From contig JBNKTL010000013.1 in the NCBI GenBank assembly GCA_050298055.1, positions 5,979-69,978 on the forward strand: a DNA stretch of 64,000 bases. The letters are read 5' to 3'. The notes under the pieces were generated by a model that saw only the letters and a program-made list of their open reading frames with translations, was not told the DNA's origin and searched no databases. This document shows, one piece after another, positions 2,266 through 48,393 of the stretch (positions within the stretch are counted from its first letter, which is position 1; each line of letters begins with the position of its first letter). The translations under genes were made by a program, and so were the position numbers. Origin of the DNA: Spirochaetota bacterium (GTDB taxonomy: Bacteria; Spirochaetota; UBA4802; UBA5550).

Positions 2266-2319
2266 ATCCTCGAATAGATGAACAGAGTGTTTTGCCGGAC
2301 ACACTGTTTTTCCGTTTGC

Positions 2320-2490
2320 GTTGACAGGTCTTCTGGCTCCCGGATCTTCCTACCGGCCAGGCCTTCCCGCTTGATAGGCAGTGGCATGTTCTGGCTTTCG
2401 TCCCCGGTTACAGCGGCGGGCCCGCTCCTGAATCTAACAGGATTCCCTTTAACCTCCGTCTTCATGGAGGATCAACACAGTTAATATACG
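2320..2490 (-). promoter_or_regulatory. Cobalamin riboswitch
   Basis: Minus strand has TTAAAGGGAATCC, GCCCGCCGCTGTAA, GCCACTG, GGGAAGG and B12 box GAGCCAGAAGACCTGTC, upstream of btuB. Confidence 0.93.
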
Positions 2491-2552
2491 TCAAATAACG
2501 AAAGTCAGTGTAAAAGCCTCTTGAGATGTGTCAATAAAAAACTGGATTTTTT

Positions 2553-8779: not shown

Positions 8780-9589
8780 CTATTTTTTCAACTCATCCGC
8801 CAGTTCGTTGAGTTCCGCAACCCTGTTTTCAACGGAAGGATGAGTAGAGAAGATCTCCCAGTTCCCCACAGCTGCCATGAGATTACCCATAAGGTGGTGG
8901 GGTGACTTGGGTTTCCTGCTCACAACAGGGCTTCCTCTAAGTTCGGGTGCGATTTTCTGCAGTGCCGATGCCAGGATCATGGGCTCCCCTGTGAGCCTTC
9001 CTGCGTATTCATCGGCCCTGTATTCCTTTTGCCGTGAAACAGCCATTGTAATGATACTTGCAACAGCCGGTGCCATTACTGCAATAATCATGGTCTTGGC
9101 CCATCCAAGCTTCCTGTTGCCTCCGAAAAACAGGGCAAAGAGTGAAAGAAGCGTTATAGCACCGGCAAGGGTAGCTGTAATTCTCTGAAAAATATTGTCA
9201 TGATGCACAATATGGGCAAATTCATGCGCTATGACACTCCTCAGTTCATTGTCATCCAGCTTTGAAAAAAGCCCCTCTGTTGCCGTAACGGTTTTTTGCT
9301 CAGGGCATATAATCACTGCCGACCTGGAGGGAATGATATATAAACCGGGCAGAGGGAGCCCTGACTTCTCACTCACACTCTTTGTTATCCGGACAAATTT
9401 ATGGTTTTCAGGCGCCGGATGGGTCTGATACGCGGATAACATGAGGGAATCGGAATGCCAGGTCAAAAGTACGTTTACAATGAGTGCCGCAACTAAGGCA
9501 ATGGCCATCCCTTTGATGCCTGCAAAAAGCCTGCCAATAAACAGGAAAAATGCGGTAAGAAGAATGACGAGCAATATTATTTTTATCAT
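8780..9589 (-). CDS. htpX: M48 zinc metalloprotease, HtpX-like
   Basis: IAHEFAH, SRQKEYRAD, FSTHPSVENR. Confidence 0.8.
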   Translation of the reverse strand: MIKIILLVILLTAFFLFIGRLFAGIKGMAIALVAALIVNVLLTWHSDSLMLSAYQTHPAPENHKFVRITKSVSEKSGLPLPGLYIIPSRSAVIICPEQKTVTATEGLFSKLDDNELRSVIAHEFAHIVHHDNIFQRITATLAGAITLLSLFALFFGGNRKLGWAKTMIIAVMAPAVASIITMAVSRQKEYRADEYAGRLTGEPMILASALQKIAPELRGSPVVSRKPKSPHHLMGNLMAAVGNWEIFSTHPSVENRVAELNELADELKK

Positions 9590-9979
9590 TTATTTCAATT
9601 CCTGATATACTAAAATTGTAAAAAAGGCCACTTAACATTAATGTACTCTAATTGGGACCATAATCAACATTTTTTACCCTGAAAGCCCTCGAAATACTGT
9701 TATTGATTAATACATAAAGTACTGTTTAGTAATGAATATTAAATTAAGAACTTCCTGAAAAAGTCAATAGGATTTCCTCCACTATAAAAAAAATTTATCA
9801 GATAATATAACTTTTTCTTATTGCTGCTCCATATTCTTCCCAGTTGTAATCTATAATTCTGCCTGTATCCCGGGAAAGGGCGTAAGTATTGGAGGTTGGA
9901 TTTGGAACGGATTTATTGATAAACAAAAATTAACACACAGGATACTCATTACAGCAGTGAGAAGTTATTTAACGACAAA

Positions 9980-36804: not shown

Positions 36805-38547
36805 ATGATAACAAGAATTTATATAAAAAATTTCAAAAGGTTTGATGAAGCCAGCATTGATATCGGAAAATCTGTTGTATTAATTGGACCCAACAACTCG
36901 GGGAAAACAACTGCATTACAAGCTTTAGCACTTTGGGAAATTGGATTACGACGTTGGATTGAAAAGCGTCAAGGTAAATCAATAAAAACCCAAAGACAAG
37001 GTGTGGTTATTAACAGACGAGATCTTTCATCTTTACCTGTACCTGTAGCAAACCTGCTTTGGCGTGATTTACATGTCAGAAATGTAGAACGTGACGAAGG
37101 AAAACAAAAAACACAAAATATTCGAATAGATATTCTTGTAGAAGGCATTACCAACGATAAAACTTGGTCATGTGGTTTAGAGTTTGATTATGCCAATGAA
37201 GAATCTTTTTATTGCAGACCTCTTAGATTAAATGATAATGATCCAATAGAGAGAATGCCAATAGCTGAGTCTGCTTTAGAGGTCGAAGTTGCTTTTTTAC
37301 CACCCATGTCTGGATTAGCAGACCGAGAATTTATCAAACAATCAGGAGAAATCAGTGTATTAGTTGGACAAGGACAAACTGCACAAGTTTTACGAAATTT
37401 ATGTTATAGTGTTTGTTACCCAGGAGAATTAATATCACCATCTTCTGAATGGGATGAATTAACACAACATATAATACGCTTATTTGGAATTAAACTTCTT
37501 CCACCAACATTGATACAGGAAAGAAGTGAAATTACAATGCATTATATTGAAGAATCAGGTAAAGGAGTGAAACTTGATCTTTCATCGGCCGGGAGAGGTC
37601 TACAGCAAACTTTATTAATACTTGCTTACTTGTACGCCAACCCAAAAACAGTCTTATTATTGGATGAACCCGATGCTCACCTTGAAGTTTTACGTCAACG
37701 TCAAATTTATCAATTGATAAATGATATTGCTAAAAATAATGGTTCACAAGTAATTGCCGCCAGCCATTCAGAGATAATTTTTAATGAAGCTGCAAATCAA
37801 GGACTCGTTATTGCTTTTGTCGGAAAACCTCATATAATAAATGATCGAGGTTCTCAAGTAATGAAAGCTCTCACCGATTTAGGTTGGGAACAATATTATC
37901 AAGCCGAACAAACTGGTTGGGTACTCTATTTAGAGGGATCGACAGATTTAGCAATTATAAAAACATTTGCTCGAAAATTACAACACCCTGTAGAACAATT
38001 CTTAGATATGGCTTTTGTTCATTATGTTTCTACAAATTTACCACAAAAAGCACGCGATCACTTCTTTGGTCTTTGCGAAGCAAAATCTGATTTAATTGGC
38101 ATAGCTTTGTTTGATAGACTCGATAAAGAATTGAAATCAACTGATCGTTTGATAGAAATTATGTGGGAAAAAAATGAGATTGAAAATTATATTTGCACTA
38201 AAGATATTCTACTCGAATGGGCTGTTCATAATATACCAGATGATTTATTTGGACAAGCGGAGATTCGACATAGGCGAGAAGTGATGCAAAAAGCCATAGA
38301 AGATGTAACTCATTTACTAGAAATTGATGAGAAATCCCCATGGTCAAATGAAGTAAAAGCAACAGATGAAGTTTTAGATCGCATATTCCGTATTTTCTTT
38401 AAAGAGTTAAATTTACCTTTAACATTTCGAAAAGTTGATTATTACAAACTTACAGATTTTATTGGAAAAAATAATATCGATAAAGAAGTTATTGAAAAAC
38501 TCGATTTAATATATTCTGTAGCAAACAAAGCTGTTTCAAAATTTTGA
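36805..38547 (+). CDS. ABC-ATPase + TOPRIM (OLD-like ATP-dependent nuclease)
   Basis: GPNNSGKT, LLLDEPDAHL, ASHS, YLEGSTD, FDRLD, EIENY; AT-rich. Confidence 0.75.
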   Translation: MITRIYIKNFKRFDEASIDIGKSVVLIGPNNSGKTTALQALALWEIGLRRWIEKRQGKSIKTQRQGVVINRRDLSSLPVPVANLLWRDLHVRNVERDEGKQKTQNIRIDILVEGITNDKTWSCGLEFDYANEESFYCRPLRLNDNDPIERMPIAESALEVEVAFLPPMSGLADREFIKQSGEISVLVGQGQTAQVLRNLCYSVCYPGELISPSSEWDELTQHIIRLFGIKLLPPTLIQERSEITMHYIEESGKGVKLDLSSAGRGLQQTLLILAYLYANPKTVLLLDEPDAHLEVLRQRQIYQLINDIAKNNGSQVIAASHSEIIFNEAANQGLVIAFVGKPHIINDRGSQVMKALTDLGWEQYYQAEQTGWVLYLEGSTDLAIIKTFARKLQHPVEQFLDMAFVHYVSTNLPQKARDHFFGLCEAKSDLIGIALFDRLDKELKSTDRLIEIMWEKNEIENYICTKDILLEWAVHNIPDDLFGQAEIRHRREVMQKAIEDVTHLLEIDEKSPWSNEVKATDEVLDRIFRIFFKELNLPLTFRKVDYYKLTDFIGKNNIDKEVIEKLDLIYSVANKAVSKF

Positions 38548-38558
38548 AATATCCTCCA

Positions 38559-38969
38559 TCAGCCCAGGTTGTCGCCCTTTGAACTCATGCTGAGGCTGGA
38601 ATTCTTCACGCCCCGAAGGACCTTGAGTTTCTGGGAGAGCTCCTGAACCCGGGTGGAGGTCCCTTTGACGATGATCACTTCCAGGCAGTTGTCATGGTCA
38701 ACATGGATATGGGTGGAGGAAACAATAAATGAATGGTAGTCGTGCTGGAGTTCGGTTATCTTCTCCTGGATGTTATGGAGATGGTGGTCGAAAACCAGTG
38801 TAATGACACCGAAAACCTCCCTGTCCTCAGTCCACTCATCCAGAACAAGGGCGTCACGGATCAGGTCCCTGATGGCCTCGGAGCGGTTCATGTAGCTCTT
38901 CTTTCCGATATAGCTGTCAAACTTATCCAGCAGACTCTCTTCAAGTGATATGGAAAAACGCTTTAACAT
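38559..38969 (-). CDS. nikR: Nickel-responsive regulator NikR
   Basis: RFSISL, NRSEAIRDLIR, HIHVDHDNCLE. Confidence 0.95.
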   Translation of the reverse strand: MLKRFSISLEESLLDKFDSYIGKKSYMNRSEAIRDLIRDALVLDEWTEDREVFGVITLVFDHHLHNIQEKITELQHDYHSFIVSSTHIHVDHDNCLEVIIVKGTSTRVQELSQKLKVLRGVKNSSLSMSSKGDNLG

Positions 38970-39038
38970 TTGGTTACCACAAATCGTAATTTTGTATTTC
39001 TCTCATCCATTCCCTCTTTTTGTCAACGACAAATATAT

Positions 39039-39806
39039 TTAACTCTGTGAAAAGATCATGGCCGCGCCGTAGGCCACGGTAAATTGAGGGGACGGCAACA
39101 CATGAACATGTGTAAGCAGTTCATTTTCAATGCACCGGACCAGTCCCGGGTTCATGGCAGGCCCCCCGTCAATATAGATATTTTCACCAAGGTCCATATT
39201 CCCGATCATGTTCACAACCCGTTTTGCCACGGATTCATGGAGCCCTTTGATGATTTTCTCTTTACCCGTTCCCTCCGCCAGAAGCGACACGATTTCACTT
39301 TCCGCGAAAACCACGCAGGTACTGTTTATTGAAACAGATGAACCGGGATTCAGGCTTAAATCCCCGAACCGGGAAAGGGGTGTATCGATAATTCTGGCCG
39401 CTATTTCAAAAAACCTGCCGGTCCCGGCGGCACATTTATCGTTCATTTTAAAGTCCGCCACCTTCCCCCCGGGAGAGATCCTGATGACTTTGACGTCCTG
39501 GCCGCCGATATTAATGATCGTGTGGGCCTTTTGACCGCTCAGGAGATATGCCCCGCAGGCGTTGGCGGATATTTCATCCACAACATTGTCCGTGCCGGCG
39601 ATGAGCTTTCTCCCGTAACCGGTGGCAAAAATATTTTCCACGCATGACCTCTCCCGGGAAAGTTCCCGGAGCCCTTCGGATATCATTTTTTCAACAAGCT
39701 CCCCCTGGCCGGGAATTGTGGGAGAGACCTCTTCCCTGAGGATCTCACCATCCCGGATAAACACCATCTTTACGGCAGTGCTTCCAATATCAACACCTAT
39801 CTTCAA
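39039..39806 (-). CDS. ATP-dependent activase (HgdC/BadF; DCCP-reductase type)
   Basis: GVDIGSTAVK, ATGYGR, IGGQDVK, MNDKCAAGTGRF, STCVVFAESE. Confidence 0.92.
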   Translation of the reverse strand: MKIGVDIGSTAVKMVFIRDGEILREEVSPTIPGQGELVEKMISEGLRELSRERSCVENIFATGYGRKLIAGTDNVVDEISANACGAYLLSGQKAHTIINIGGQDVKVIRISPGGKVADFKMNDKCAAGTGRFFEIAARIIDTPLSRFGDLSLNPGSSVSINSTCVVFAESEIVSLLAEGTGKEKIIKGLHESVAKRVVNMIGNMDLGENIYIDGGPAMNPGLVRCIENELLTHVHVLPSPQFTVAYGAAMIFSQS

Positions 39807-39824
39807 ACTGTCTTTCCTCCTTCT

Positions 39825-41051
39825 TTACAGGGTATTTTTAAATGCTTCAAGACGCGTCAGGAGACCCTGACTGTCTTCCTCCACGTAATCGGTTTCAATC
39901 TTTATAAACTTGTACCCGCGCTCTTTCAGTTCTTTTTCAAGAGAGTAACTTTCAATATCATAGGGATGGCATCCTTTCAGCACATGGTAGATAACACCGT
40001 TGATGTCATGATTTTGCAGGGTATTTAAAATTCCTTTGAGCCGGTGGTCGTTGTCCGCGTAGGTGGGACAGATACACGCTTTATGGTACCTGTGAGCAAG
40101 GGCTTTCATGAGGCCCTGTTCCGATGTATCATCGTAACATGCCCCCCCGGGGAATATCCGCTCCGAGGAACAGAGATCGTCCGCGGCAACAGACATACCC
40201 GCTTTTTCAACGAGAGAAAGAAGTTTCAGGTTCGGGAAAACAACCGGCGCCCCCGTAAGAAAGACCCCGGGGGTGTCCGGTTGACTTTTTTCAGTTTTTA
40301 ACCGTTCAATCACGGGCCTGCAATTTCCCGTCCAGGTTTCGATATTTTCAAAGGGGAAGACGTTGGCAATTATTGTAAAGAGCAAAGCGGAGATCTTTTT
40401 CTCTCTTCTCAGTTCAATGAGTTCATTAAAGTCCTTCCATGCGGCAAGGTACCTGTTGAGCGAATGCAGCATTTCTCTGCGCCTGACTCTTTTACCCGTT
40501 ATTCTTTCAAAGAGTTTTTTTAATTCAAAAAGTTCCTGCAGCCAGCGGGACTCCCCTTTCTCACTCTGTTTCATATGGGGGAGCTCAAGGAAATGAATTT
40601 TTTCCCTGTCACAGTCCGCAAGCTCCGGGAATTTCACCACCCAGTCGCATGTTGTGGGGAGTATGATTCTTTCAAAAAGATTTTTATACGAATCATGACT
40701 CTTTAATATTCCCATTGTGGATTTAATCACCGGGCATGTGAGCGCGGGCAATGTTGAAGCGGAGAGGAGCTGGGCGGCATGAGAACCGCCGCATAATTTG
40801 AAAGGCTGAAGATCAAACATATGAAAAAGTTCATGAGGTGACTGAATGCAGAAAAAACCCACAAAGGGCCGCCCGGTCCTCTCCCTGATCTTTTCGGGAA
40901 AGAGGGAATCCGCAACCGTATCAAGGAAGGGGTCCAGTTCATGGATATAGTCAGGCCTGGATTTCAAAGAATCAATCCGGGAATCACACTCCCTTTTCAT
41001 CAGTTCATTGGCATTCTCCAGCAGTCTGGAATGTCTTTTATTTTTTCCCAT
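39825..41051 (-). CDS. 2-hydroxyacyl-CoA dehydratase-family / double-cubane-cluster reductase
   Basis: FFC, LCGG, CPVIK, TTCD, DLCS, CICP, GCHPYDIE, KIETDY...TRLEAF. Confidence 0.85.
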   Translation of the reverse strand: MGKNKRHSRLLENANELMKRECDSRIDSLKSRPDYIHELDPFLDTVADSLFPEKIRERTGRPFVGFFCIQSPHELFHMFDLQPFKLCGGSHAAQLLSASTLPALTCPVIKSTMGILKSHDSYKNLFERIILPTTCDWVVKFPELADCDREKIHFLELPHMKQSEKGESRWLQELFELKKLFERITGKRVRRREMLHSLNRYLAAWKDFNELIELRREKKISALLFTIIANVFPFENIETWTGNCRPVIERLKTEKSQPDTPGVFLTGAPVVFPNLKLLSLVEKAGMSVAADDLCSSERIFPGGACYDDTSEQGLMKALAHRYHKACICPTYADNDHRLKGILNTLQNHDINGVIYHVLKGCHPYDIESYSLEKELKERGYKFIKIETDYVEEDSQGLLTRLEAFKNTL

Positions 41052-41982
41052 GCAGCCTTCCCCACTTTTGAGCAACGTATTTTTTTGAAGAACTGAATAT
41101 CCTGAAGTTCAAAAACTTTATCTGCAGAACATTGTCCCCTGGACATGATTCGGCGCACTTCATGCAGAGCATGCAGTCGTCTTTCATGACGTCCTTTCTC
41201 TTTTTTTCAAGATAGACCTCTTTGATGTCAACGGGACACATCCGCTGGCAGTTTCCGCAGCCGAGACAGGTCCCTATGGATTTTTCAAAACGCACAAACC
41301 CGATCTTTTTGAAGATATGCATCAGGGCCAGCAGGGGACAGAACATGCAGAAAAACCTGTCTTTAAAAAAGATCCCGATGACCATGCTGCCGGTAATGAC
41401 CAGGGAAAGGACCGTAAAGGAGAGGGTAATTGAATTTGTAAAATCCAGTGAAAGATATTTTGTTTCTCCCGCAAAGAGGGGCAGGAGGGGCTTTGCCGGG
41501 CAGATCTGGCAGAAGGGGAGAGCAAAATCAGTGTGGAGCCCGAAATTCGCGATAAAAACAGGGATGAGAATCAGGACTGCCAGTAAAATGTACTTGATAA
41601 TCTTCAACCTCTCCCGTGTTGCCCGGGAAAATCCCGACTCCCTTATCCCCAGCTTCCTTCTCAAAGCCGTGAACCAGTCCTGCAGTGTGCCAAAGGGACA
41701 GACCCAGCCGCACCAGGTTTTAGAGAAGGGGACAAAGAGCAGAATAAAAAACAGAAATACCAGCAGGGCATTGAGTCCCCATTGCGTAAAGAAATCGGGA
41801 AACGCCAGCCCAAACCCCATACGGTTCTGCAGTGCCATAAGATAGCAGTGCCCCGCGCACCCGCCCACATAGGGACAGGCGAAACAGGGCAGCGAATGAC
41901 CCAGGCGTATCCCCAGCCGTCCCCCGTACATGAGAATGATGAAGAAAAAATTCTGTATATAAAACCGTAATTTTCCGACCAT
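41038..41982 (-). CDS. Membrane 4Fe-4S binding protein (NapH/FixG-like)
   Basis: WCGWVCPFG, FCQICP, FCMFCP, CLGCGNCQRMCP, CMLCMKCAESCP. Confidence 0.88.
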   Translation of the reverse strand: MVGKLRFYIQNFFFIILMYGGRLGIRLGHSLPCFACPYVGGCAGHCYLMALQNRMGFGLAFPDFFTQWGLNALLVFLFFILLFVPFSKTWCGWVCPFGTLQDWFTALRRKLGIRESGFSRATRERLKIIKYILLAVLILIPVFIANFGLHTDFALPFCQICPAKPLLPLFAGETKYLSLDFTNSITLSFTVLSLVITGSMVIGIFFKDRFFCMFCPLLALMHIFKKIGFVRFEKSIGTCLGCGNCQRMCPVDIKEVYLEKKRKDVMKDDCMLCMKCAESCPGDNVLQIKFLNFRIFSSSKKYVAQKWGRLHGKK

Positions 41983-42935
41983 CAGACTCTCTGCCGGTTT
42001 TTTTTCCCTCTGGCCCGTATGACCAGGAAGAGGAAAAAAGCCATACTCCCCGAAACAAGGAACAAACCTGATTTAAGATCATGATACGCGTCCCGTGAGC
42101 GGTGCAGCAGGAGTGTATAGGTTCTCCTGAAGATTCTGCCGCCCCTCTTTTCTTTTATCTGAATGAAACTGTTCTTATACGCCGCTGCCCCCCGCGTATC
42201 CAGGTCCCTGTCATGGGGAGGAATACAGGTAAATTCCCCATTACTGTCTGGTTCCAGGGATAAGACAATTCCCTTATCAACGGCCTTTATCTCCGGATAA
42301 TTTCCGGTGTCCCTCCCGGAATTGAGTTTAAACCGGTACACCCGGCCTGTCTGTGGCCAGTAGTTATTCAGAGGGGAGAGAATGCTGACTGCCGGGAAAT
42401 CTTCCGGTTGGTCCGTAAGACCCTCCCTTTCCGGAGGTTTATTCGATTGTCCAAAGAGAGAAAATGAAGTCTCCGCAGTATATACGGCATTTTTCATAAC
42501 TGTAAAAATCCGGACCTCAAAGAAAGATGCCTTCCCGGCTTTGATCTTTATGAGCGCCCTGTTGTCGTGAGAGAGGACTGGAAGCGAATAACAGTTTTTT
42601 TTGTCCACCCTGCAGATTGCCTTAAATTCACTGTGTCTGAAAAGGGAATAGAAGTGTTTTGAACTGCCATTTATCCATAAGACCTGGACAACCGAACCAT
42701 CCTTGTTTTTCAACTGTTTTCCGTACTCTAACCGGATATATCTCTCTTCCGGTACCTGAAAAAGTTCTGCTGAATCTGACGGATATTCAAAGAAAAGACA
42801 TTGAGATATGACTATGAGTGTAAATAACTTATTCACTGTATTCTCATTACAATGGGGACTGCTTTTTTTTACAGGTACTCCGGGATGGGATAAATATACG
42901 GATTCCCCGTAACCGGGTTCTTCTTCATTGAACAC
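41982..42935 (-). CDS. Hypothetical exported protein with C-terminal TM anchor (DUF4198-like?; likely GTG start at 42836)
   Basis: N-terminal hydrophobic peptide, PDSNGEF segment, C-terminal TM plus basic tail. Confidence 0.6.
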   Translation of the reverse strand: MFNEEEPGYGESVYLSHPGVPVKKSSPHCNENTVNKLFTLIVISQCLFFEYPSDSAELFQVPEERYIRLEYGKQLKNKDGSVVQVLWINGSSKHFYSLFRHSEFKAICRVDKKNCYSLPVLSHDNRALIKIKAGKASFFEVRIFTVMKNAVYTAETSFSLFGQSNKPPEREGLTDQPEDFPAVSILSPLNNYWPQTGRVYRFKLNSGRDTGNYPEIKAVDKGIVLSLEPDSNGEFTCIPPHDRDLDTRGAAAYKNSFIQIKEKRGGRIFRRTYTLLLHRSRDAYHDLKSGLFLVSGSMAFFLFLVIRARGKKNRQRV

Positions 42936-43651
42936 TCCCTGTCGAAAAGTGAACTTACCAGCTCCCCGGTCAGGCAGTCCGCCGTTTTCCCGTGGCAGAA
43001 TATCCCGCCCCCCTTGAGACCCATTATGCTGCTGCAGTAATCGGAGGCCATGTTTATGTCGTGCAGGACCGTAATAATCGTGGAGCCCTCCCGGTTCAGC
43101 CTGTGCAGCAGGTCCATGATCCGGATAGAGTGTTTAATGTCCAGGCTTGAGACCGGTTCGTCACAGATGATGACGTCCTTGTTCTGCGCTAATGCCCGTG
43201 CCAGGCAGACCAGCTGAAGCTCACCCCCTGACAAACGGGAGAGAAGGCGGTCCTTTAAGTGGACCGTTCCGGTTATCTTCATTGAATCATTTATTATTTC
43301 CCGGTCTTCCCGGGAATTTTTTTCCCAGAAATTCAGGAAAGGGAACCTTCCCATACCGATGAAATTTTCAACCCTGAAAGGATTGATGTTCGCGAGGAAC
43401 TGCGGTAAAAATGCCATTCGCCGGGCTATTTCCATCGGCTCGTATGATGAAAGTTTTTGACCGTAAAAATCTACAGAACCCTGCAACGGCTCAAGGAGAC
43501 CGGAGAGTGTCTTGAGGAATGTGCTTTTCCCCGCGCCGTTGGGGCCGATAATTCCCAGAAAATCCTTTGGGGCAACGGAAACATTTATGTTCCTCAGTAC
43601 CCGGATCGTGCCGTAACCCGAGTCAAGGGAGTCAACGTCAAATATGTTCAT
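42869..43651 (-). CDS. btuD: Cobalamin/siderophore ABC transporter ATPase
   Basis: GPNGAGKST, LSGGE, CDEP, VLHD. Confidence 0.82.
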   Translation of the reverse strand: MNIFDVDSLDSGYGTIRVLRNINVSVAPKDFLGIIGPNGAGKSTFLKTLSGLLEPLQGSVDFYGQKLSSYEPMEIARRMAFLPQFLANINPFRVENFIGMGRFPFLNFWEKNSREDREIINDSMKITGTVHLKDRLLSRLSGGELQLVCLARALAQNKDVIICDEPVSSLDIKHSIRIMDLLHRLNREGSTIITVLHDINMASDYCSSIMGLKGGGIFCHGKTADCLTGELVSSLFDRECSMKKNPVTGNPYIYPIPEYL

Positions 43652-44622
43652 TACGCCACCCCCCTTCTCATCATGAGGACAAGGAAAAATATCCCCCCGA
43701 AAAAACCCGTGATGACACCGATGGGTATTTCGTAGGGAGGGGCAATACTCCTGCCCAGCATATCACAGAGAGCGAGAAAGACGGCCCCGGTTACCGCCGA
43801 GAAAAGGAGAAGCCTGCCGTGATCGGGACCGAAAATATTCCTGGTTATGTGCGGTATGATAAGCCCCACAAAACCGATGACTCCCGCAAGGGACACGGAG
43901 AGGGCGGCCAGGAGTGAAGCGATCCAGAAAAGACTTTTAACGTCCTTCTGTGACACCCCCATGGACTGCGCCAGTTCGTCCCCGAAAGCTATGATATTCA
44001 GGTGCCGGTGATATGTAAAGGCAAAGACGATAATAACGAGGGACAATAATGCCGCCCTTCCCATCATTTCATACCGGGCTATGGAGAGGTCCCCCATGAG
44101 CCACATGAGCGCTTTATGGACCTGCTGGGAGGGCGAAAGGGCAAAGATCAGAAGCACCGTTGCCCAGAGGATAAAGCTGAGGGAAATTCCCGCAAGGATC
44201 AGCGTTGAGGAACCGAACCGTCTCCGCCTGGACACCATGTAGATAAATGATGCCGCCCCGAGACTTCCCATGAGGGCGCCGGATAAAATAAAAAGACTGC
44301 TTTTTGAAAAAATAATACCGAAACACGCCCCCAGGGAAGCGCCGCTGGAAACGCCGATCATATAGGGGTCCGCGAGGGGGTTCTTCAGAATAGACTGAAA
44401 GATAACGCCGCTCACCGCCAGGGAGGAACCGATAAGAAGGGCCATCCCCAGGCGGGGGACCCTGAGACTGAGGAGCACCCTCATTTCATTTGTTTCCGGC
44501 CTTCCCTGCAGGGTCTTGATAATATTCGCCGGGGATATAAAGGAGGACCCCAGGGAGAGTGACAGCAGAATGATCACACCCCCAGCAAGCAGCAGGAGAA
44601 TATACCTGGATTTATTGCTCAT
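43651..44622 (-). CDS. btuC: Cobalamin ABC permease (FecCD family)
   Basis: LRVPR, NPLADP..GVSSGA, IGFVGLIIPH. Confidence 0.85.
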   Translation of the reverse strand: MSNKSRYILLLLAGGVIILLSLSLGSSFISPANIIKTLQGRPETNEMRVLLSLRVPRLGMALLIGSSLAVSGVIFQSILKNPLADPYMIGVSSGASLGACFGIIFSKSSLFILSGALMGSLGAASFIYMVSRRRRFGSSTLILAGISLSFILWATVLLIFALSPSQQVHKALMWLMGDLSIARYEMMGRAALLSLVIIVFAFTYHRHLNIIAFGDELAQSMGVSQKDVKSLFWIASLLAALSVSLAGVIGFVGLIIPHITRNIFGPDHGRLLLFSAVTGAVFLALCDMLGRSIAPPYEIPIGVITGFFGGIFFLVLMMRRGVA

Positions 44623-45520
44623 TAAGTTTTTCCTTCTCTCTTTTAATGATCCCCGTTACCTGTTCAACGGATTTCACATAATCTCCCGGTGTATAGAGGC
44701 AGATGTTTTCAGATTTCAAGGGATAGATACTTTTGTTTTTCATGACTTTTAAGTCCGGGAAGTCTTTCAACGATCTTACCAGGGACCTGTTGTTTGTTCC
44801 CGTATGGTACAAAATTGAGACGATAATATCGGGATCAAGTTTTACCAGGTGCTCCAGGGAGAGTTTCGGATAGGGACGGCCCAGAAGCCTCATACTGTTT
44901 ATCCCCCCCGCGTCATTGATGACCTTCCCGATATAGGTAACGTTGCTCACTCCCACAATGGGTGTGTTTGACACAAGGAGCGCGATGGACGGTTTACTGC
45001 CGACTGAAATTATTGAGTCCAGCTTCTTCCTGTATTCTTTGAGTTTTTTCTCTGCCAGTTTTCTCTTCCGGATAATTGTTGCAAGTTCAAGATAATTCTC
45101 ACAGATTGAATCAAAACTGCGGTTTCTTCCAAATTTATGGACCGCAATCTTCGTGGCCTTCAACATGTCAACAAACTGGACCACGTTGTCCTCTTCGGAC
45201 ATAAAGACAATATCCGGTTTTAATTTTACGATCTCTTCGATATTCGGCCGCACCAGTGTTCCCACTATTTTGATCTTCCGCGTCAGGGGAGGATGATAGG
45301 ATGTGACCCCCACAAGAAGGTGTTCCGATTCAAGATCAATGACCTGGCGTGTTATCGCGGGCGAAAGGGCGATGATCCTATTGACATTGCCGGCTGTTTT
45401 TGAAACTGCCGGTTTCTCATCCGGGGGGAAGAGAAAAACAGAGAAAGAGACCAGGAGGAGTAAAGGAATTTGATATAACCGGATCTTCTTCAGGTGTATT
45501 AATAATATACTCAGTTTCAT
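44612..45520 (-). CDS. btuF: Periplasmic cobalamin-binding protein
   Basis: RIIALSPAIT, PNIEEIVKLKPD, YPKLSLE...DPD. Confidence 0.8.
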   Translation of the reverse strand: MKLSILLIHLKKIRLYQIPLLLLVSFSVFLFPPDEKPAVSKTAGNVNRIIALSPAITRQVIDLESEHLLVGVTSYHPPLTRKIKIVGTLVRPNIEEIVKLKPDIVFMSEEDNVVQFVDMLKATKIAVHKFGRNRSFDSICENYLELATIIRKRKLAEKKLKEYRKKLDSIISVGSKPSIALLVSNTPIVGVSNVTYIGKVINDAGGINSMRLLGRPYPKLSLEHLVKLDPDIIVSILYHTGTNNRSLVRSLKDFPDLKVMKNKSIYPLKSENICLYTPGDYVKSVEQVTGIIKREKEKLNEQ

Positions 45521-45532
45521 AGTGGATGCCGT

Positions 45533-46171
45533 TTAATATATTAAATTCAGGTTGTATACAAGCTGGACATTAAATTCCATGTTCTCATCCAGATAGACAT
45601 CGGGAAAGGAGGGAAAAGGAAGCGATTTGTATATTGTCTTTACCCCCGCCCTGTTCAGCATTTCATGTTCACAGCCCTTTACAAGCTTTACGGAACCTGC
45701 CAGTGTTCCGTCCTTCCTCAGAATAAATCTCAATACAACAACTCCCTCCTGGTTCATGCGCCGGGCAGTAAGAGGATAGTATTTCATCCTCTGGATTCTC
45801 GAGAGGACCCTGCTTTTATATGTCTTCATGATCTTTTCCACGGGATTTTTTGAGAGGGAGGCGGGCGCCGGGGAGTTTCTGTTCTTTTCCGCCCCGGTTT
45901 TTCCCGCAGGCAGATCTCCCGGTTTTTTAAAAGCACTTTTTTCCCGGTCATCATTCTTGTTATCTTTCAAGTGACGAAATTCATGATGCCGCCCGTTATC
46001 ATTAATGCTGAAGTTAATGAAAGTGAAACCGGCTTTTTTTGAAGGGAGCTCAATCTCCTTATCTGTCCGCCCGGACCGGGGATAGATGATTACAAGGTGT
46101 AATACCATTGATGCTATTAACGCGTAAAGGAATACCCTGTCCCGGCTTTTATTATTTGCCATTACTTTCAT
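45533..46171 (-). CDS. tonB: TonB energy transducer
   Basis: N-terminal TM with HL; YPLTARRMNQEGVV. Confidence 0.85.
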   Translation of the reverse strand: MKVMANNKSRDRVFLYALIASMVLHLVIIYPRSGRTDKEIELPSKKAGFTFINFSINDNGRHHEFRHLKDNKNDDREKSAFKKPGDLPAGKTGAEKNRNSPAPASLSKNPVEKIMKTYKSRVLSRIQRMKYYPLTARRMNQEGVVVLRFILRKDGTLAGSVKLVKGCEHEMLNRAGVKTIYKSLPFPSFPDVYLDENMEFNVQLVYNLNLIY

Positions 46172-46556
46172 GCGCGAGGCTGATCTCCTTTGCTCCGGAA
46201 CTTTTTATTATTCCCATAATATTAATAAATTTTTTATAGAGTATATTTTCATCACCCTGGAAGATTATTTTCTTCTTCTGCGTTTTTTCCAGCTTCTGTT
46301 TTAAGAGTGACGGGAACAGTTCAGCCTCCACTTCATTTCTGTTGAGAAAGATCTTTCCCTCTTTGTCAACGGAAACGATAATCTCCCGGTTTTTTGCTTT
46401 TTCCCTGCTTCCGGCCACGGGAAGTTTCAGGGATATTGCGGGCCGGAGAAAAGACGATGTGAGTAAAAAGAAGAGAAGAAGCATGAACATAACATCCAGC
46501 AGCGGTGCAACGTCCGGTTTAATTGATGATTTTTTGGCCCTCCTGAAACTTTTCAC
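46152..46556 (-). CDS. exbD: ExbD/TolR
   Basis: PLLDVMFMLLLFF. Confidence 0.9.
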   Translation of the reverse strand: MKSFRRAKKSSIKPDVAPLLDVMFMLLLFFLLTSSFLRPAISLKLPVAGSREKAKNREIIVSVDKEGKIFLNRNEVEAELFPSLLKQKLEKTQKKKIIFQGDENILYKKFINIMGIIKSSGAKEISLAHESNGK

Positions 46557-47173
46557 CCCTGGCTTCTCTCCTTATCGTCAAAAAATATATTCAGTTCTGA
46601 AATCAGGTGCTGCATTTCATCGGACCTCTTGTTCACAAGAGTGTCAAAATAATGATGAAGCGCCGTTACGGGAATTGCCACAATCAGCCCGAAGGCAGTT
46701 GTCAAAAGGGCCTCCCAGATTCCGCCTGCAAGCTGAGTCACATCCGCCTGCCCTCCTATTGAGTAAATCTCCTGGAAACATTTAATCATGCCGATCACCG
46801 TACCCAGCAGACCCATGAGAGGTGTCAGGTGCGCTATTGCCGATAAAGACGGAAGCCTTGTTTCAAGTTTTTTTAACTCTTCGCTGCCGCGCTGGTAGAG
46901 TATTTCTTCCAGCTTTTTTTTCCTTGTTTTATAATTTGTGAGATAAGCCCCGGTTATTTCTCCGAAGACAGTCCCGCTGTTTATTGCAAATCCAATAGCG
47001 CCCTGTATGTCATCAGCCCCCAGGAACGACTTTAAATCGTTAAGGAATTTACTATAAGAATTCCCTGTCCGTAAATAATAGAGTGATCTCTCAATTGCCA
47101 CGGCTACGGCAACAACCGAACAGACCAGGATGGCATACATGACCCATCCGCCCCTGTTTAACATATCAAGCAT
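46553..47173 (-). CDS. exbB: ExbB/MotA/TolQ
   Basis: PLMGLLGTVIGMI, GIWEALLTTAFGLIVAIP. Confidence 0.92.
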   Translation of the reverse strand: MLDMLNRGGWVMYAILVCSVVAVAVAIERSLYYLRTGNSYSKFLNDLKSFLGADDIQGAIGFAINSGTVFGEITGAYLTNYKTRKKKLEEILYQRGSEELKKLETRLPSLSAIAHLTPLMGLLGTVIGMIKCFQEIYSIGGQADVTQLAGGIWEALLTTAFGLIVAIPVTALHHYFDTLVNKRSDEMQHLISELNIFFDDKERSQG

Positions 47174-47247
47174 TAAAAAACCTCAAAAGTTAATAATTTT
47201 TACAACCACTCAACTATACAGAGCCGGGTAGTTTCTCCTCATATTAA

Positions 47248-47290
47248 TAAAAAAACCCGGACCAGTAACGCGGCCCGGGGATTCCCTTTT
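47248..47290 (-). terminator. Riboswitch attenuator terminator of the exbB operon
   Basis: Transcript CCCGGGCC...GGTCCGGG followed by a T7 run. Confidence 0.72.
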
Positions 47291-47347
47291 CTCTCCTCAA
47301 GTCAAGTGAACACGCTTTCTTCCCTCGAAAATCCGGTGTTCATCTAT

Positions 47348-47525
47348 ACAGGCAGGTCTTCTGGTTTCCGGATCATCCTACTGACCGCGCCTTCCCGTAA
47401 GCCTTGCCCGGTTAAAGGTCTGCTTACAGTGGCTTCCCTGCGGTTTTCGTCCCCGGCTACAGCGGCGGGTCCACACCCGATTTTGACGGGTTTCCCTCTT
47501 AGCTCACTGATGAGAACCTGTATAT
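47348..47525 (-). promoter_or_regulatory. Cobalamin riboswitch
   Basis: Minus strand AGGTTC...AAGAGGGAAACCCG, CCCGCCGCTGTA, GCCACTG, GGGAAGG, AACCAGAAGACCTGCC. Confidence 0.93.
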
Positions 47526-47666
47526 CATTAAATAAATATTATTTTAAAGATCAATAAAAACAACCTGCAACAAGCAAAAACCGCAGGGTAAATTTTGTCA
47601 ATTTTATTCAGGCTTTATTCTAAAAAATTACTCATCTGCCATAAAGGCTTATTAACTTCCAGGTTG

Positions 47667-47762: not shown

Positions 47763-47925
47763 ATGGCCTTTGACTCAAAACCTGAAACTAAACTAATCGC
47801 CTCCGTGGATAATCTTTTGATAATAATTTGTAAATCAAGTTTTGTAATTAATACTTAATTTTAATATTAGTTTGACAAATAAAAGAGCATGAATCAAGTA
47901 TTAATTGAATTCACGGGAAAAAATT

Positions 47926-48393
47926 ATGCCAAAGGAAATACTCACAGAAGATATTGTTAAACTGATCACAGAGGTCTTTGAGGAAAAAGTTCCCTTTAAC
48001 AAAATCATTGGAATGAAGCTGGAACAGATTGAACCGGGCCATTCAAAAATATCCTTTGAAATGAAAGATGATCTGATTGGAAATTTTGCCCTGGGTATTC
48101 TCCATGGGGGCGTTATATCGGCCACCCTGGATGTTGCAGGAGGTCTTACCGCTTTCCTGGGGGTCCTTGGCACCATGAAGGGAAAATCCTTCGAAGAACA
48201 GGTCGGGCGTTTTGCAAAGATAGGGACAATTGACCTCAGGGTGGATTACCTCCGTCCCGGGAAGGGAAAGCACTTTACCGCCAGCGGATCGGTCCTCAGG
48301 ACCGGGAACAGGGTGGCAGTTACACGAATGGAACTCCACAATGAAAAGAACCTGCTCATAGCCCTGGGTACCGGGACCTATATTGTGGATTAG
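47926..48393 (+). CDS. PaaI/YigI hotdog-fold thioesterase
   Basis: ILHGGVISATLD, TIDLRVDYLRPG. Confidence 0.88.
   Translation: MPKEILTEDIVKLITEVFEEKVPFNKIIGMKLEQIEPGHSKISFEMKDDLIGNFALGILHGGVISATLDVAGGLTAFLGVLGTMKGKSFEEQVGRFAKIGTIDLRVDYLRPGKGKHFTASGSVLRTGNRVAVTRMELHNEKNLLIALGTGTYIVD

Follow-up and report, generated by a model that had tools for sequence, protein, structure and literature searches.

Organization of the predicted operon

The window, by which we mean the whole 64-kb stretch of DNA analysed, carries on its reverse strand a predicted operon that begins with a Cobalamin riboswitch. The aptamer (47334..47536) is matched by Rfam RF00174 over the full model (positions 1-189 of 189) at 100.4 bits (gathering score 31.5; E 6.5e-24). 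Downstream of the aptamer and ahead of exbB lies a terminator-like hairpin (47256..47279), with a 9-bp stem containing 7 GC pairs and then the T-run TTTTTTTATT, which is likely to be the expression platform of the riboswitch. The six genes that follow on the same strand are exbB-like, for a proton channel subunit (46553..47173; PF01618 MotA_ExbB, E 1.3e-29), exbD-like (46152..46556; PF02472 ExbD, E 1.1e-26), tonB-like (45533..46171; PF03544 TonB_C, E 1.2e-10), btuF-like, for a BtuF-type periplasmic binding protein of the class-III substrate-binding type (44612..45520; PF01497 Peripla_BP_2, E 2.1e-16), btuC-like, for a BtuC/FecCD-type permease (43651..44622; PF01032 FecCD, E 1.6e-85), and btuD-like, for a BtuD/FecE-type ABC ATPase (42869..43651; PF00005 ABC_tran, E 2.8e-28). 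At the level of NCBIfam, the btuF-like product stays under the cut-offs of the IsdE, BtuF and TroA-like models, and the top model for the btuC-like product is BtuC (209 bits, under its cut-off). The Rfam match, the hairpin and the Pfam domains thus bear out the riboswitch and attenuator that the initial annotation had placed ahead of exbB-exbD-tonB-btuF-btuC-btuD.

Four redox genes continue on this strand. The first encodes X317, an anchored periplasmic protein (41982..42836, the longest ORF extending to 42935). It is followed by a NapH-like integral-membrane polyferredoxin (41038..41982; PF12801 Fer4_5 and a dicluster ferredoxin domain), a DCCP-like protein of the HgdB family (39825..41075; PF06050 HGD-D, E 4.5e-65; translation start likely M9 at 41051) and an ATP-dependent electron-transfer activase, or archerase, of the HgdC/HadI type (39039..39806; BcrAD_BadFG; TIGR00241, 241 bits against a cut-off of 125). 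Further downstream lies nikR (38559..38969; NF003381, 172 bits against a cut-off of 105), at the spacing of 69 bp noted previously. Neighbouring genes of the operon overlap or stand 12, 18 or 32 bp apart, in agreement with the close packing first described; the 32-bp gap presupposes a GTG start for X317 at 42836, which is the likely start as read from the sequence. Between btuD and the reductase genes no convincing terminator was found, the only candidates being weak sites with 3-5 GC pairs within coding sequence, and 13 promoter-like sites were counted where shuffled sequence gives 13.8 +/- 3.7, i.e. there was no excess. An uncoupling promoter or terminator had been named beforehand as an argument against a single operon, and none was seen. 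Only one HGD-D gene is present in the operon and the genes scanned included no CoA-transferase, in line with the lone HgdB-type subunit that had been reported. As a whole, the original observation is confirmed.

Together with a separate riboswitch-controlled BtuB-like gene in the window (244-2157), the riboswitch and the first six genes of the operon resemble the known BtuB-TonB-ExbBD and BtuFCD uptake system under a cobalamin riboswitch. The standard BtuB/BtuFCD system has no reductase, whereas here the four redox genes extend the same predicted operon.

The DCCP-like protein, its activase and the membrane partners

In sequence comparisons, the HgdB-family protein resembles double-cubane cluster protein (DCCP) more than it does the beta subunits of dehydratases. 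The NCBIfam double_cubane model NF040772 gave 231 bits (cut-off 350) and the HadC model 96.5 bits (cut-off 700); among PDB entries DCCP 6eno gave 143 bits (E 1.2e-40) and HadC 75 bits. The six double-cubane ligand cysteines are kept in 70 of 70 family members, and the cysteine motif matches the 7-Cys motif given in PMC7317905. The protein had been proposed to be DCCP-like, and these data uphold that proposal; a grouping with dehydratase beta subunits, named in advance as a counter-indication, was not seen. The cluster type is not certain, since classical DCCPs have a seventh, non-ligand cysteine that only 21 of the 70 members retain (the window protein has it) and an extra cysteine, C334, occurs in 68. 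For the activase, the PDB matches were HadI 4eht (185 bits), HgdC 1hux (170) and DCCP-R 7yyl_E (140).

The closest characterized system is DCCP/DCCP-R of Carboxydothermus hydrogenoformans (CHY_0487/0488; PDB 6eno, 7yyl), which shares the combination of one HgdB-family subunit with an HgdC-type ATPase, provides the top PDB and NCBIfam matches, and has all six cluster-ligand cysteines in common with the window protein. Its physiological role is treated as open in the corresponding part of a 2020 review (PMC7317905). The window protein differs in that its 231 bits fall under the equivalog cut-off of 350 and its family forms a branch of its own, apart from the true DCCP of the same genome, which scores 495 bits. 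This family also adjoins or is fused with NapH-like proteins, has an exported partner, and is found under B12 riboswitches. The 2-hydroxyacyl-CoA dehydratases and class I benzoyl-CoA reductases (HadBC/HadI, HgdAB/HgdC, BcrABCD) belong to the same superfamily (PF06050, PF01869) and share the principle of ATP-driven electron injection, and the window activase is most similar to HadI and HgdC. They have two catalytic-type subunits, whereas there is one here, and the HadC, BzdN and BcrC models score far under their cut-offs on the window protein. Relatives are publicly annotated as 2-hydroxyacyl-CoA dehydratase or phenyllactate dehydratase.

The NapH-like protein reached 61-64 bits with NapH models, whose cut-offs are 213-234. 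Its family has 16 invariant cysteines in a 46-row alignment and 17 in a 54-row alignment, with C33 and C42 conserved at 81-90%. Fusions of the NapH-like and DCCP-like proteins exist in the database (P0017, 724 aa, 20 member sequences; P0051, 728 aa). With NapH/NosR/PceC-type proteins it shares the Fer4_5 membrane domain, Cys-x-x(x)-Cys-Pro motifs and two cytoplasmic [4Fe-4S] ferredoxin motifs. CcoG, which reduces Cu(II), joins such a membrane Fe-S domain to an Ig-like domain in the periplasm. In the literature, NapH/NosR/PceC-type proteins are proposed to pass electrons between a cytoplasmic or membrane pool and periplasmic partners. The present protein differs from them in lacking an FMN-binding domain and any partner of the Nap, Nos or Rdh kind: its partner inside is the ATP-driven DCCP-like system, and its partner outside the DUF4198-like protein X317.

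X317 starts with a signal-like segment, continues with a periplasmic beta-sandwich domain and ends in a transmembrane anchor. Neither Pfam nor NCBIfam gave a match for the window copy, and a DUF4198 match was obtained for 3 of 46 family members. The best Foldseek matches of its AlphaFold2 model (pLDDT 84.9) were structures of Zcp with Co, Cu or Zn bound (9mhn, 9mhm, 9mhl; E 9e-06, TM 0.40/0.51), suggesting that X317 is a distant DUF4198/Zcp-like protein, with a modest fold match. Zcp of Neisseria gonorrhoeae (PDB 9mhj-9mhn) would thus share a related beta-sandwich fold; X317 is set apart by its C-terminal membrane anchor, the missing Pfam match of the window copy and the TM values of only 0.40 and 0.51. 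Zcp, which captures metal in the periplasm and belongs to DUF4198, is described as binding Zn, Co, Ni and Cu (PMC12663993). DUF4198 genes have also been reported with PepSY-type transmembrane electron-transfer genes, in clusters some of which hold TonB and for which a role in iron assimilation and siderophore-iron extraction was proposed (bioRxiv 10.1101/2021.01.07.425746). In contrast to these PepSY-DUF2271-DUF4198 flavinylation clusters, the electron source here would be an ATP-driven archerase system, not PepSY/flavin.

A predicted complex of X317 with the NapH-like protein scored 0.73, and the best of 3 controls scored 0.00. Three runs agreed in at least 94% of contacts, with a partner pLDDT of at least 75. 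This score is reached by 116 of 157 solved complexes and by 2 of 215 mismatched pairs, counts that hold only roughly because our own alignments were used. In the models X317 docks on the NapH-like protein, its most conserved motifs touching the periplasmic loops of this partner.

Conservation of the module and linkage to B12 riboswitches

In a tblastn survey of 80 related loci from at least 10 phyla, 71 had a NapH-like gene in the 3.5 kb ahead of the DCCP-like gene, and by ORF clustering an activase was present in 65 and X317 in 47. A different exported protein takes the place of X317 in 4 + 4 further loci, and one of these two families has a weak DUF4198 match. Judging by the taxa in the locus titles, all loci except L023 (labelled Lachnospiraceae) come from outer-membrane lineages. 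The genes for X317, the NapH-like protein, the DCCP-like protein and the activase are a conserved four-gene module, which is new here. The initial annotation had seen a unit in the polyferredoxin, HgdB-family and HgdC-type genes; these do recur together, but the unit comprises four genes and includes X317. It had also pointed to nikR downstream, which is not part of the conserved system: nikR was found by tblastn in 0 of the 80 loci, and is a local neighbour, not a component of the module. Full-text literature searches returned no description of the module, which has apparently never been described before.

A Cobalamin or AdoCbl riboswitch on the same strand, at most 8 kb upstream and with only same-strand ORFs between, precedes the module in 27 of 60 informative loci, where about 0.5 would be expected by chance (background of 336 riboswitches in 176.9 Mb across 40 of the module-bearing genomes). 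In 13 of the 27 there is no called ORF between riboswitch and module, although in two of these the riboswitch is about 2 kb away and a separate check put a receptor gene between; 6 reach the module via a TonB-dependent receptor and 8 via other genes. Two of 11 truncated loci (L040 and L044) are further positives, and in Sporomusa sp. KB1 the four module genes stand alone between two riboswitches. The sequence at hand held no upstream riboswitch in 32 of the 60 informative loci (15 of them checked with Rfam and the other 17 only with our own nhmmer profile), which speaks against a corrinoid role. Among neighbours in the 80 loci, TonB machinery was found in 44, BtuF/BtuC in 18, CobN-like or CbiK in 16, and corrinoid salvage or late-pathway genes (CbiZ, CbiB, BtuR, CobQ-like, CobT, CobD-like) in 12. 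The receptors are BtuB-like, the representative of their family scoring highest with the TonB-B12 model. Another point against a corrinoid role is that neither a TonB nor a B12 signal was found in 23 of the 80 loci, many of which are short or fall into a divergent clade from termite guts that has ApbE. In many diderm anaerobes the module is part of the B12-riboswitch regulon. A linkage to B12/corrinoid uptake beyond this genome, whose absence had been named as a counter-argument, is therefore found in riboswitches, receptors, ExbBD/TonB, BtuFCD and salvage genes alike.

These findings make it most improbable that the HgdB-like protein and the activase are a common CoA-ester dehydratase or reductase placed behind a B12 uptake operon by chance, an explanation already disfavoured. 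It could draw on the dehydratase names given to relatives and on the co-transcription of the operon being only predicted. Against it stand the single subunit without a CoA-transferase among the scanned genes, the HadC score of 96.5 bits where 700 is required, the recurrence across phyla of the riboswitch and uptake linkage far above chance, and the fusion of the DCCP-like protein to a membrane polyferredoxin in some organisms.

The neighbourhoods also bring up the notion that the module delivers reductant to a (de)chelatase of the CobN/HmuS type, which would take out or exchange the metal of tetrapyrroles or corrinoids after their import. CobN-like genes occur in 14 of the 80 loci, often with DUF2162, an ExbB-like gene and DUF2149, and in L024 all of these and the module stand behind one riboswitch. 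HmuS, a CobN homologue, is stated in PMC12583661 to remove heme iron anaerobically and to need a reductant. By contrast, the window and 66 of the 80 loci have no CobN-like gene beside the module, and the sole CobN-like gene of this genome is on another contig, where it is accompanied by Opp/Nik-type ABC transporter genes but by no riboswitch. We regard such a role as improbable.

Candidate substrates and direction of electron flow

The explanation that we favour, with a probability of about one half, is that the module is an ATP-driven low-potential reductase acting on the cobalt of incoming corrinoids. The four proteins would form one envelope-associated reductase of very low potential, in which ATP spent by the activase drives an electron onto the double-cubane cluster. 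This cluster would connect to the ferredoxin domain that the NapH-like protein has in the cytoplasm, the two proteins being one polypeptide in some organisms. The NapH-like protein has conserved cysteine sets on both membrane faces and would hold X317 on the periplasmic face; it may receive electrons instead of supplying them. The most likely substrate would be corrinoid cobalt, Co(III)/Co(II) being reduced towards Co(II)/Co(I), which could strip upper ligands, free the corrinoid for transfer to BtuF/BtuCD, or prime it for adenosylation by BtuR. When corrinoid is scarce, the riboswitch would turn on the whole uptake-plus-reduction operon.

The same machinery might instead act on a cobalt or nickel ion or a metal chelate: a TonB-dependent receptor would import the complex, X317 would capture the metal in the periplasm, and the reductase would release or reduce it, by analogy with periplasmic ferric-siderophore reduction. 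The nearest solved relative of X317, Zcp, binds metal ions, not corrinoids, and the iron role proposed for the PepSY/DUF4198 clusters points the same way. B12 riboswitches also control cobalt transporters, and nikR adjoins the module in the window. A paralogous module of the same genome, with no riboswitch, lies beside a siderophore-type receptor, so the machinery is not corrinoid-specific in itself. CbiD was found in 25 of 40 module-bearing genomes, where cobalt supply for de novo synthesis is thus possible. The relation to Zcp, the paralogous module and the presence of CbiD count against a corrinoid substrate. On the other side, CbiC, CbiD and CbiG_C were not found in this genome (98.3% completeness), CbiJ stands alone among unrelated genes, and CbiB, CobS and BtuR are present, so that the cell appears to need corrinoid rather than cobalt, and cobalt would be no relief for B12 shortage. 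Elsewhere the module lies among BtuB-like receptors, BtuFCD and the salvage genes CbiZ, CbiB, BtuR and CobQ, and nikR is missing from all of the 80 related loci. Finally, no histidine column of X317 is conserved at 90% or more in the 46-row alignment, hence no conserved histidine triad is evident. A metal substrate is therefore rather unlikely, and the metal release or Co/Ni-ion uptake raised initially is less likely than corrinoid processing, because of the missing Cbi genes here and the salvage genes around the module elsewhere.

Electrons could also flow inward, the direction proposed in the initial annotation, with the chemistry taking place in the cytoplasm. The NapH-like protein would feed electrons in, with X317 anchoring and perhaps gating it, and the DCCP-like protein with its activase would be the anaerobic enzyme, long missing, that reduces corrinoid Co(II) to Co(I) for the adenosyltransferase BtuR. 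The module does lie within operons with BtuR, CobQ, CbiB and a CobD-like gene in L012, L013, L019 and L068. Electrons passing from the quinol pool to the activase would have to go strongly uphill, and the fusion joins the NapH-like protein to the DCCP-like protein, not to the activase. Inward flow also leaves no role for a conserved periplasmic partner whose most conserved motifs, in the predicted complex, meet the NapH-like protein at its periplasmic loops, and the near-restriction of the module to outer-membrane lineages argues against it. In all characterized relatives covered by the relevant section of PMC7317905, HgdB/DCCP is the catalytic site and the activase the electron donor, which favours inward flow. 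On balance we consider it unlikely.

Reduction of incoming corrinoids, as we favour it, would have a precedent in chemistry: the corrinoid Co(II)/Co(I) couple is a textbook example of the need for ATP-driven reduction, as in the RACE activators (PMC7317905). RACE-type activators such as RACo and RamA would share with the module the ATP-driven reduction of corrinoid Co(II) to Co(I), an activity that we infer here. The proteins are unrelated, and RACE acts on a protein-bound cytoplasmic corrinoid and is not encoded in an uptake locus.

Operon layout and uptake genes

The operon is headed by a Cobalamin riboswitch (RF00174; 47334-47536, minus strand), whose score of 100.4 bits exceeds the gathering threshold of 31.5 and whose match spans the whole Rfam model (positions 1-189 of 189). 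A terminator-like hairpin with a T-run (47279-47256, minus strand; 9-bp stem with 7 GC pairs) lies upstream of the exbB start at 47173 and is a putative expression platform. The riboswitch is trailed by eleven minus-strand genes: exbB, exbD and tonB, the BtuF-type, BtuC/FecCD and BtuD-type genes, and then the genes for an exported, C-terminally anchored protein that we call X317 (41982-42836), a NapH-like membrane polyferredoxin (41038-41982), an HGD-D protein of the HgdB family that resembles the double-cubane cluster protein (DCCP) of Carboxydothermus hydrogenoformans (39825-41075), an HgdC-type activase (39039-39806) and NikR (38559-38969). The junctions are overlaps or gaps of 12-32 bp, except for the 69 bp ahead of nikR. 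A GTG start at 42836 is suggested for X317 by a reading of the sequence; it lies 32 bp behind btuD and yields a signal-peptide-like N-terminus. This confirms, as written, the initial annotation of a cobalamin riboswitch/attenuator operon running from uptake genes into reductase genes, with nikR 69 bp further on. That reading would have been undone by an internal promoter or terminator that uncouples the reductase genes. From btuD to the reductase genes, the terminator-like sites are all weak and fall within coding sequence, and 13 promoter-like sites were counted, against 13.8 +/- 3.7 in shuffled sequence. Such uncoupling was therefore rejected, the sites being weak and at chance level.

All six proteins of the BtuFCD/ExbBD-TonB uptake set match their families (PF01618, PF02472, PF03544, PF01497, PF01032 and PF00005), and none of the six reaches an NCBIfam equivalog cut-off, so that the substrate specificity assigned to them rests on the riboswitch. 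A second Cobalamin riboswitch (2306-2491, minus strand, 115.9 bits) lies ahead of the gene for a BtuB-like TonB-dependent receptor (244-2157, minus strand). This receptor scores 303 bits with the TonB-B12 model, under the cut-off, and is probably the outer-membrane partner missing from the operon itself. Divergent from the riboswitch promoter region is a gene for a hotdog-fold thioesterase of the PRK11688 family (47905-48393, plus strand, 209 bits). At the other end, the NikR assignment is sound (NF003381, 171.9 bits against 105, with matches to PF08753 and PF01402). Convergent with nikR lies a gene for a 580-aa AAA_21/AAA_15 ATPase (36805-38547, plus strand) whose N-terminus weakly matches the model of the MADS3 anti-phage ATPase; it may be a defence-type gene unrelated to the operon.

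Four proteins of a putative membrane-attached reductase

The best NCBIfam model for the DCCP-like protein is double_cubane (NF040772, 231.4 bits), with HadC (96.5), BzdN (55) and BcrC (48) scoring lower. Of the solved structures, DCCP from C. hydrogenoformans (6eno, 7yyl) is matched at E 1.2e-40 and HadC at 6.3e-20. In the portion of a 2020 review available, the DCCP 7-Cys motif is described as contributing six cysteine ligands to the [8Fe-9S] cluster (PMC7317905). In the window, C76, C95, C114, C143, C302, C336 and C369 have nearly the spacing of this motif. When aligned to DCCP, as the initial annotation had proposed, the six ligand positions (C76, C114, C143, C302, C336 and C369) proved to be retained, and they are cysteine in 70/70 family members. 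The seventh, non-ligand cysteine (classes I and II) corresponds to C95 and is present in just 21/70 members, and an additional family-specific cysteine, C334, is found in 68/70. The protein thus shares with DCCP the six ligand cysteines and an adjacent HgdC-type ATPase, but it differs in scoring under the equivalog cut-off of 350. The window's genome holds nine HGD-D matches, one of which is a true DCCP (494.9 bits, contig C17). In a quick IQ-TREE phylogeny with SH-aLRT, built without three cluster members of under 330 aa, a branch with 97% support separates true DCCP and the dehydratase-like paralogues from the NapH-linked family. The protein does not, then, group with dehydratase beta subunits, the outcome that would have overturned its initial assignment. 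A 2-hydroxyacyl-CoA dehydratase was rejected on further grounds: that enzyme has two homologous subunits against the single PF06050 gene of the operon, the HadC score of 96.5 bits compares with a cut-off of 700, and no CoA-transferase domain was found by Pfam among the 13 genes scanned in the window.

The activase gene starts 18 bp downstream of the DCCP-like gene. Its product scores 241 bits with TIGR00241 and matches HadI (185 bits), HgdC (170) and the DCCP reductase DCCP-R (7yyl_E, 140) in the PDB, with both cysteine-containing motifs aligned; by sequence it is a standard archerase. Proteins of this type inject an energised electron into an HgdB-type partner.

The NapH-like protein matches PF12801 (Fer4_5, E 2.3e-12) and Fer4_10 (E 3.6e-08). 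Its two Cx2Cx2Cx3C ferredoxin motifs (239-249 and 270-280) are invariant across the family, in which 16 cysteines are invariant in a 46-row alignment and 17 in a 54-row alignment, with two more conserved at 81-90%. It is not a NapH/MauN ferredoxin subunit proper, since it scores under the cut-offs of the quinol dehydrogenase models (NF007013, 63.9 bits against 234; TIGR02163, 61.1 against 213) and the operon contains no nap genes. We read its topology by hand from hydropathy and the positive-inside rule. The pairs C91/C95 and C212/C215 lie beside positively charged segments and are read as cytoplasmic, while C33/C36/C42/C46 and C158/C161, in the other two loops, are read as periplasmic. No solved membrane homologue was found, a profile search of the PDB having matched generic ferredoxin domains only.

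In an alignment of 46 homologues, a signal-like N-terminus leads into a domain of about 240 aa that contains the motifs DG..Q, AQT..LFG.S, YWxQTG, PPHD and HRSR, and X317 ends in a hydrophobic helix with a basic tail behind it. DUF4198 (PF10670) is matched by 3/46 family members (best E 4.8e-05); the X317 of the window has no Pfam match to DUF4198, and the X317 profile matched no PDB sequence at E <= 1. An AlphaFold2 model (pLDDT 84.9) shows a beta-sandwich followed by a long terminal helix. The top Foldseek match of the model is Neisseria Zcp in Co-, Cu- and Zn-bound forms (E ~1e-05 (9e-06), TMq 0.40, TMt 0.51), with tandem Ig-like domains ranking close behind. In the ESM Atlas the nearest clusters are labelled "hypothetical protein", and a DUF4198 cluster at 0.88 is a lead only. 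Zcp is presented in the available part of its description as the first characterised DUF4198 protein, periplasmic and metal-binding through a histidine triad of H29, H31 and H142 (PMC12663993). A likeness to Zcp bears on one rival explanation, in which a metal ion or a metal chelate is what is reduced or released. No histidine column of X317 reaches 90% conservation in the 46-row sequence alignment.

A complex of X317 with the NapH-like protein was predicted with a score of 0.73, against 0.00 for the best of three controls. In calibration, 116 of the 157 solved complexes attained this mark, as did 2 of the 215 mismatched pairs, and these counts hold only roughly for our own alignments. Three runs share >= 94% of their contacts, and partner pLDDT is >= 75. 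In the predicted complex the terminal helix of X317 (289-309) packs against NapH-like helix 186-206, and the conserved X317 loops 76-80, 163-164, 246-252 and 279-287 touch NapH-like loops 63-71, 150-154 and 174-183, which are those assigned to the periplasm. The model supports the notion that X317 binds the NapH-like protein.

Conservation of the module and its linkage to B12 riboswitches

The gene content of the module, its conservation, the fusion of two of its members, its linkage to riboswitches and its corrinoid/TonB neighbourhood were all observed. A database search found the DCCP-like family at 45-77% identity in Negativicutes, Desulfobacterota, Spirochaetota, Omnitrophota, Elusimicrobiota and other groups, where its members are annotated as dehydratase-family proteins and nothing else. 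In two database matches, of 724 and 728 aa, an N-terminal NapH-like half is joined to a DCCP-like half; proteins of 729-2080 aa yielded no larger fusions at E <= 1e-30, which is weak evidence. Members are present in cultured organisms, Sporomusa and Desulfospira among them, which makes experiments possible.

We assembled 80 related loci with up to 10 kb on either side and compared them using tblastn together with ORF clustering. In 71/80, the 3.5 kb upstream of the DCCP-like gene contain a NapH-like gene. As to the other nine, two have a partial DCCP-like match, two (L011 and L023) begin at the DCCP-like gene, so that the upstream side falls outside the sequence, two (L059 and L069) have genes inserted between, and three lack a NapH-like gene. 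Members of the activase cluster occur in 65/80 loci and those of the X317 cluster in 47/80; in eight further loci the X317 position is taken by another exported protein, from two families with four loci each, one of which has a weak DUF4198 match. Sporomusa sp. KB1 (L001) has the four genes on their own, with a riboswitch on either side; the junctions are a 4-bp overlap, one of 44 bp and a 15-bp gap.

The initial annotation had called for a neighbourhood survey covering btu, tonB and nikR. Recurrent linkage to B12 riboswitches and to TonB and Btu genes was borne out. NikR fared otherwise: tblastn detected it in 0/80 related loci, and we accordingly rejected nikR as a component of the module and treat it as a local neighbour. 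A TonB-dependent receptor cluster is found in 37/80 loci (its representative matches the TonB-B12 model best, at 168 bits, under the cut-off), and TonB machinery of any kind in 44/80. BtuF/BtuC-type genes, including BtuF-CbiZ fusions, are present in 18/80, corrinoid salvage or late-pathway genes (CbiZ, CbiB, BtuR, CobQ-like, CobT, CobD-like) in 12/80, and CobN-like genes (14 loci) or CbiK in 16/80. At least one riboswitch anywhere in the locus sequence was detected in 34/80, and at least one B12-specific signal in 44/80. The CobN-like genes are often accompanied by DUF2162, an ExbB-like gene and DUF2149. Three Desulfobacteraceae loci have a DUF4019 protein encoded between the CobN-like gene and X317 (L016 7669-8181, L024 7753-8196 and L027 7664-8200, plus strand).

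Rfam was used to call riboswitches in 23/80 loci, and an nhmmer profile made from 11 riboswitches was applied to all 80. The profile regained 10/10 Rfam matches in its source loci and later missed one AdoCbl-type and two Cobalamin riboswitches, so the counts are lower bounds. A locus was taken as informative if the NapH-like and DCCP-like genes are adjacent and at least 1 kb of upstream sequence is available (n=60). In at least 27 of these 60, a riboswitch on the same strand is located within 8 kb upstream, and every ORF between it and the module is also on that strand. In 13 of the 27 there is no called ORF between (two of the 13 lie about 2 kb off, with a receptor gene placed between), 6 reach the module via a TonB-dependent receptor gene, and 8 via other genes such as a CobN-like system or btuF. 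Of the remainder, one has an opposite-strand ORF between, and in 32 no upstream riboswitch was detected; the truncated loci L040 and L044 are riboswitch-positive too. As a background, 40 of these genomes contain 336 Rfam riboswitch matches (150 of the 336 listed) in 176.9 Mb; this density corresponds to a chance of about 0.008 for each locus and hence to an expectation of about 0.5 among 60. The riboswitch-positive loci come from Bacillota (Sporomusa), Desulfobacterota, Spirochaetota, Synergistota, Planctomycetota, Acidobacteriota and Fibrobacterota.

Neither a TonB nor a B12 signal was detected in 23/80 loci; many of these are short contigs or come from a divergent termite-gut clade in which ApbE is found instead. 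Divergent branches devoid of B12 signals comprise L059, L061, L064-L066, L069, L071, L074, L075 and L078, as well as L072, L073, L076, L077 and L079. One consists of termite-gut MAGs with ApbE nearby; another, found in Hyphomicrobiales and Desulfovibrionales, is accompanied by a 390-aa protein with a weak likeness to DUF4198, together with DsbD_2, an ECF sigma factor, TonB receptors and DUF4198. These branches may serve other substrates.

Direction of electron flow and candidate substrate

We infer that the four proteins work together as a single ATP-driven, membrane-attached reductase that faces the periplasm. In the fusion, the DCCP-like protein follows on from the cytoplasmic end of the NapH-like protein. 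Taken with the known role of the activase, this makes an outward route the simplest: electrons would pass from the activase to the double-cubane cluster, on to the NapH-like clusters, and finally to the periplasmic face with X317. NapH-like proteins have been proposed to link cytoplasmic or membrane electron pools with periplasmic partners in the accessible part of a preprint, which also reports DUF4198 genes co-occurring with a PepSY-type transmembrane electron-transfer system, some clusters also with TonB genes (bioRxiv 10.1101/2021.01.07.425746). Alternatively, electrons could flow inward, with Co(II) being reduced to Co(I) in the cytoplasm for BtuR.

The candidate substrate is the cobalt centre of imported corrinoids, which best fits the regulation, the neighbouring genes and the need for ATP. 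RACE activators are described, in the part of the review at hand, as spending ATP on the Co(II)/Co(I) couple (PMC7317905). The window's genome, at 98.3% completeness, was found to contain no CbiC, CbiD or CbiG_C; CbiB, CobS and BtuR are present, and contig C17 (L090) has a lone homologue of the precorrin-6x reductase CbiJ (9089-9835, minus strand) among unrelated genes, for an AMP-binding enzyme, Fic and an acyl-CoA dehydrogenase. Judged by this gene content, the organism looks like a corrinoid salvager. For such an organism, an operon induced through a riboswitch would be expected to bring in corrinoid rather than cobalt, which weighs against a free metal as the substrate. The module is patchy among relatives, an orthologue at E <= 1e-60 being found in 1/30 related genomes and in 0/18 of the same family. 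Across 40 module-bearing genomes of uncertain completeness, CbiD was detected in 25, so the module occurs in B12 producers as well as in apparent non-producers. A further alternative is that the module supplies reductant to CobN/HmuS-type (de)chelatases. HmuS, in the available part of its description, strips heme iron anaerobically and requires a reductant (PMC12583661), and CobN-like genes neighbour the module in the 14 loci counted here.

We put at roughly one in four the chance that the module is an envelope-spanning, ATP-powered electron injector serving nutrient uptake, in which a cytoplasmic archerase and a double-cubane protein drive electrons of very low potential along a NapH-like Fe-S/Cys relay to a periplasmic DUF4198-like partner, at which imported corrinoids are reduced, as far as Co(I), before or during transport. 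DCCPs are among the most reducing ATP-driven enzymes known. The module would bear on how anaerobes bring salvaged corrinoids to the Co(I) state required for adenosylation, and on whether a redox step accompanies uptake. The available part of the 2020 review treats the natural job of DCCPs as open (PMC7317905). With the present family, DCCP-type proteins gain a concrete and testable setting in physiology, namely the B12 regulon and the TonB-dependent uptake of corrinoids. Should the proposed reaction prove true, it would be the first physiological role for a double-cubane-type protein, it would widen the known uses of NapH-like and DUF4198 proteins, and an ATP-spending, membrane-spanning reductase would enter models of corrinoid sharing in anoxic communities as a new step. 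We found no description of the module in openly searchable full texts, and a brief mention in subscription-only work is possible; one paper in which both double-cubane and cobalamin appear is reportedly about methyltransferase gene clusters.

A paralogous system on contig C49 (L084, 2628-10595, minus strand) has the order siderophore-type TonB receptor, DUF4198-like protein (341 aa), NapH-like, DCCP-like, activase, ExbB, ExbD and TonB. Its DCCP-like protein scores 325 bits with NF040772, a GAF/sigma-54 activator lies beside the system, and no riboswitch was detected there at E <= 0.01. From this copy it would seem that TonB-dependent uptake has a general partner in this machinery. On the injector reading, its siderophore-type receptor hints at a general, previously unrecognised class of energised periplasmic reductases associated with TonB-dependent import.

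Other corrinoid-related genes lie elsewhere in the same genome. Its sole CobN-like gene (1299 aa) heads an operon on contig C66 (L088, 1363-11354, minus strand) with Opp/Nik-type ABC permeases, ATPases and a family-5 binding protein, in which no riboswitch was detected. The third B12 riboswitch of the genome, on contig C62 (L089, 6108-6233, minus strand), is of the AdoCbl type (RF01482) and scores 50.3 bits against a gathering threshold of 50. As for Sporomusa ovata, Table S1 of a 2022 riboswitch study in mBio, as available, lists eleven riboswitches, none of them ahead of the module, and one precedes nifH-nifE-nifN-like genes labelled 'Unknown (nitrogenase)' (PMC9600662). Going by that table, S. 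ovata, itself a carrier of the module, would place an unrelated, second family of ATP-driven reductases, encoded by these nif-like genes, under B12 control.
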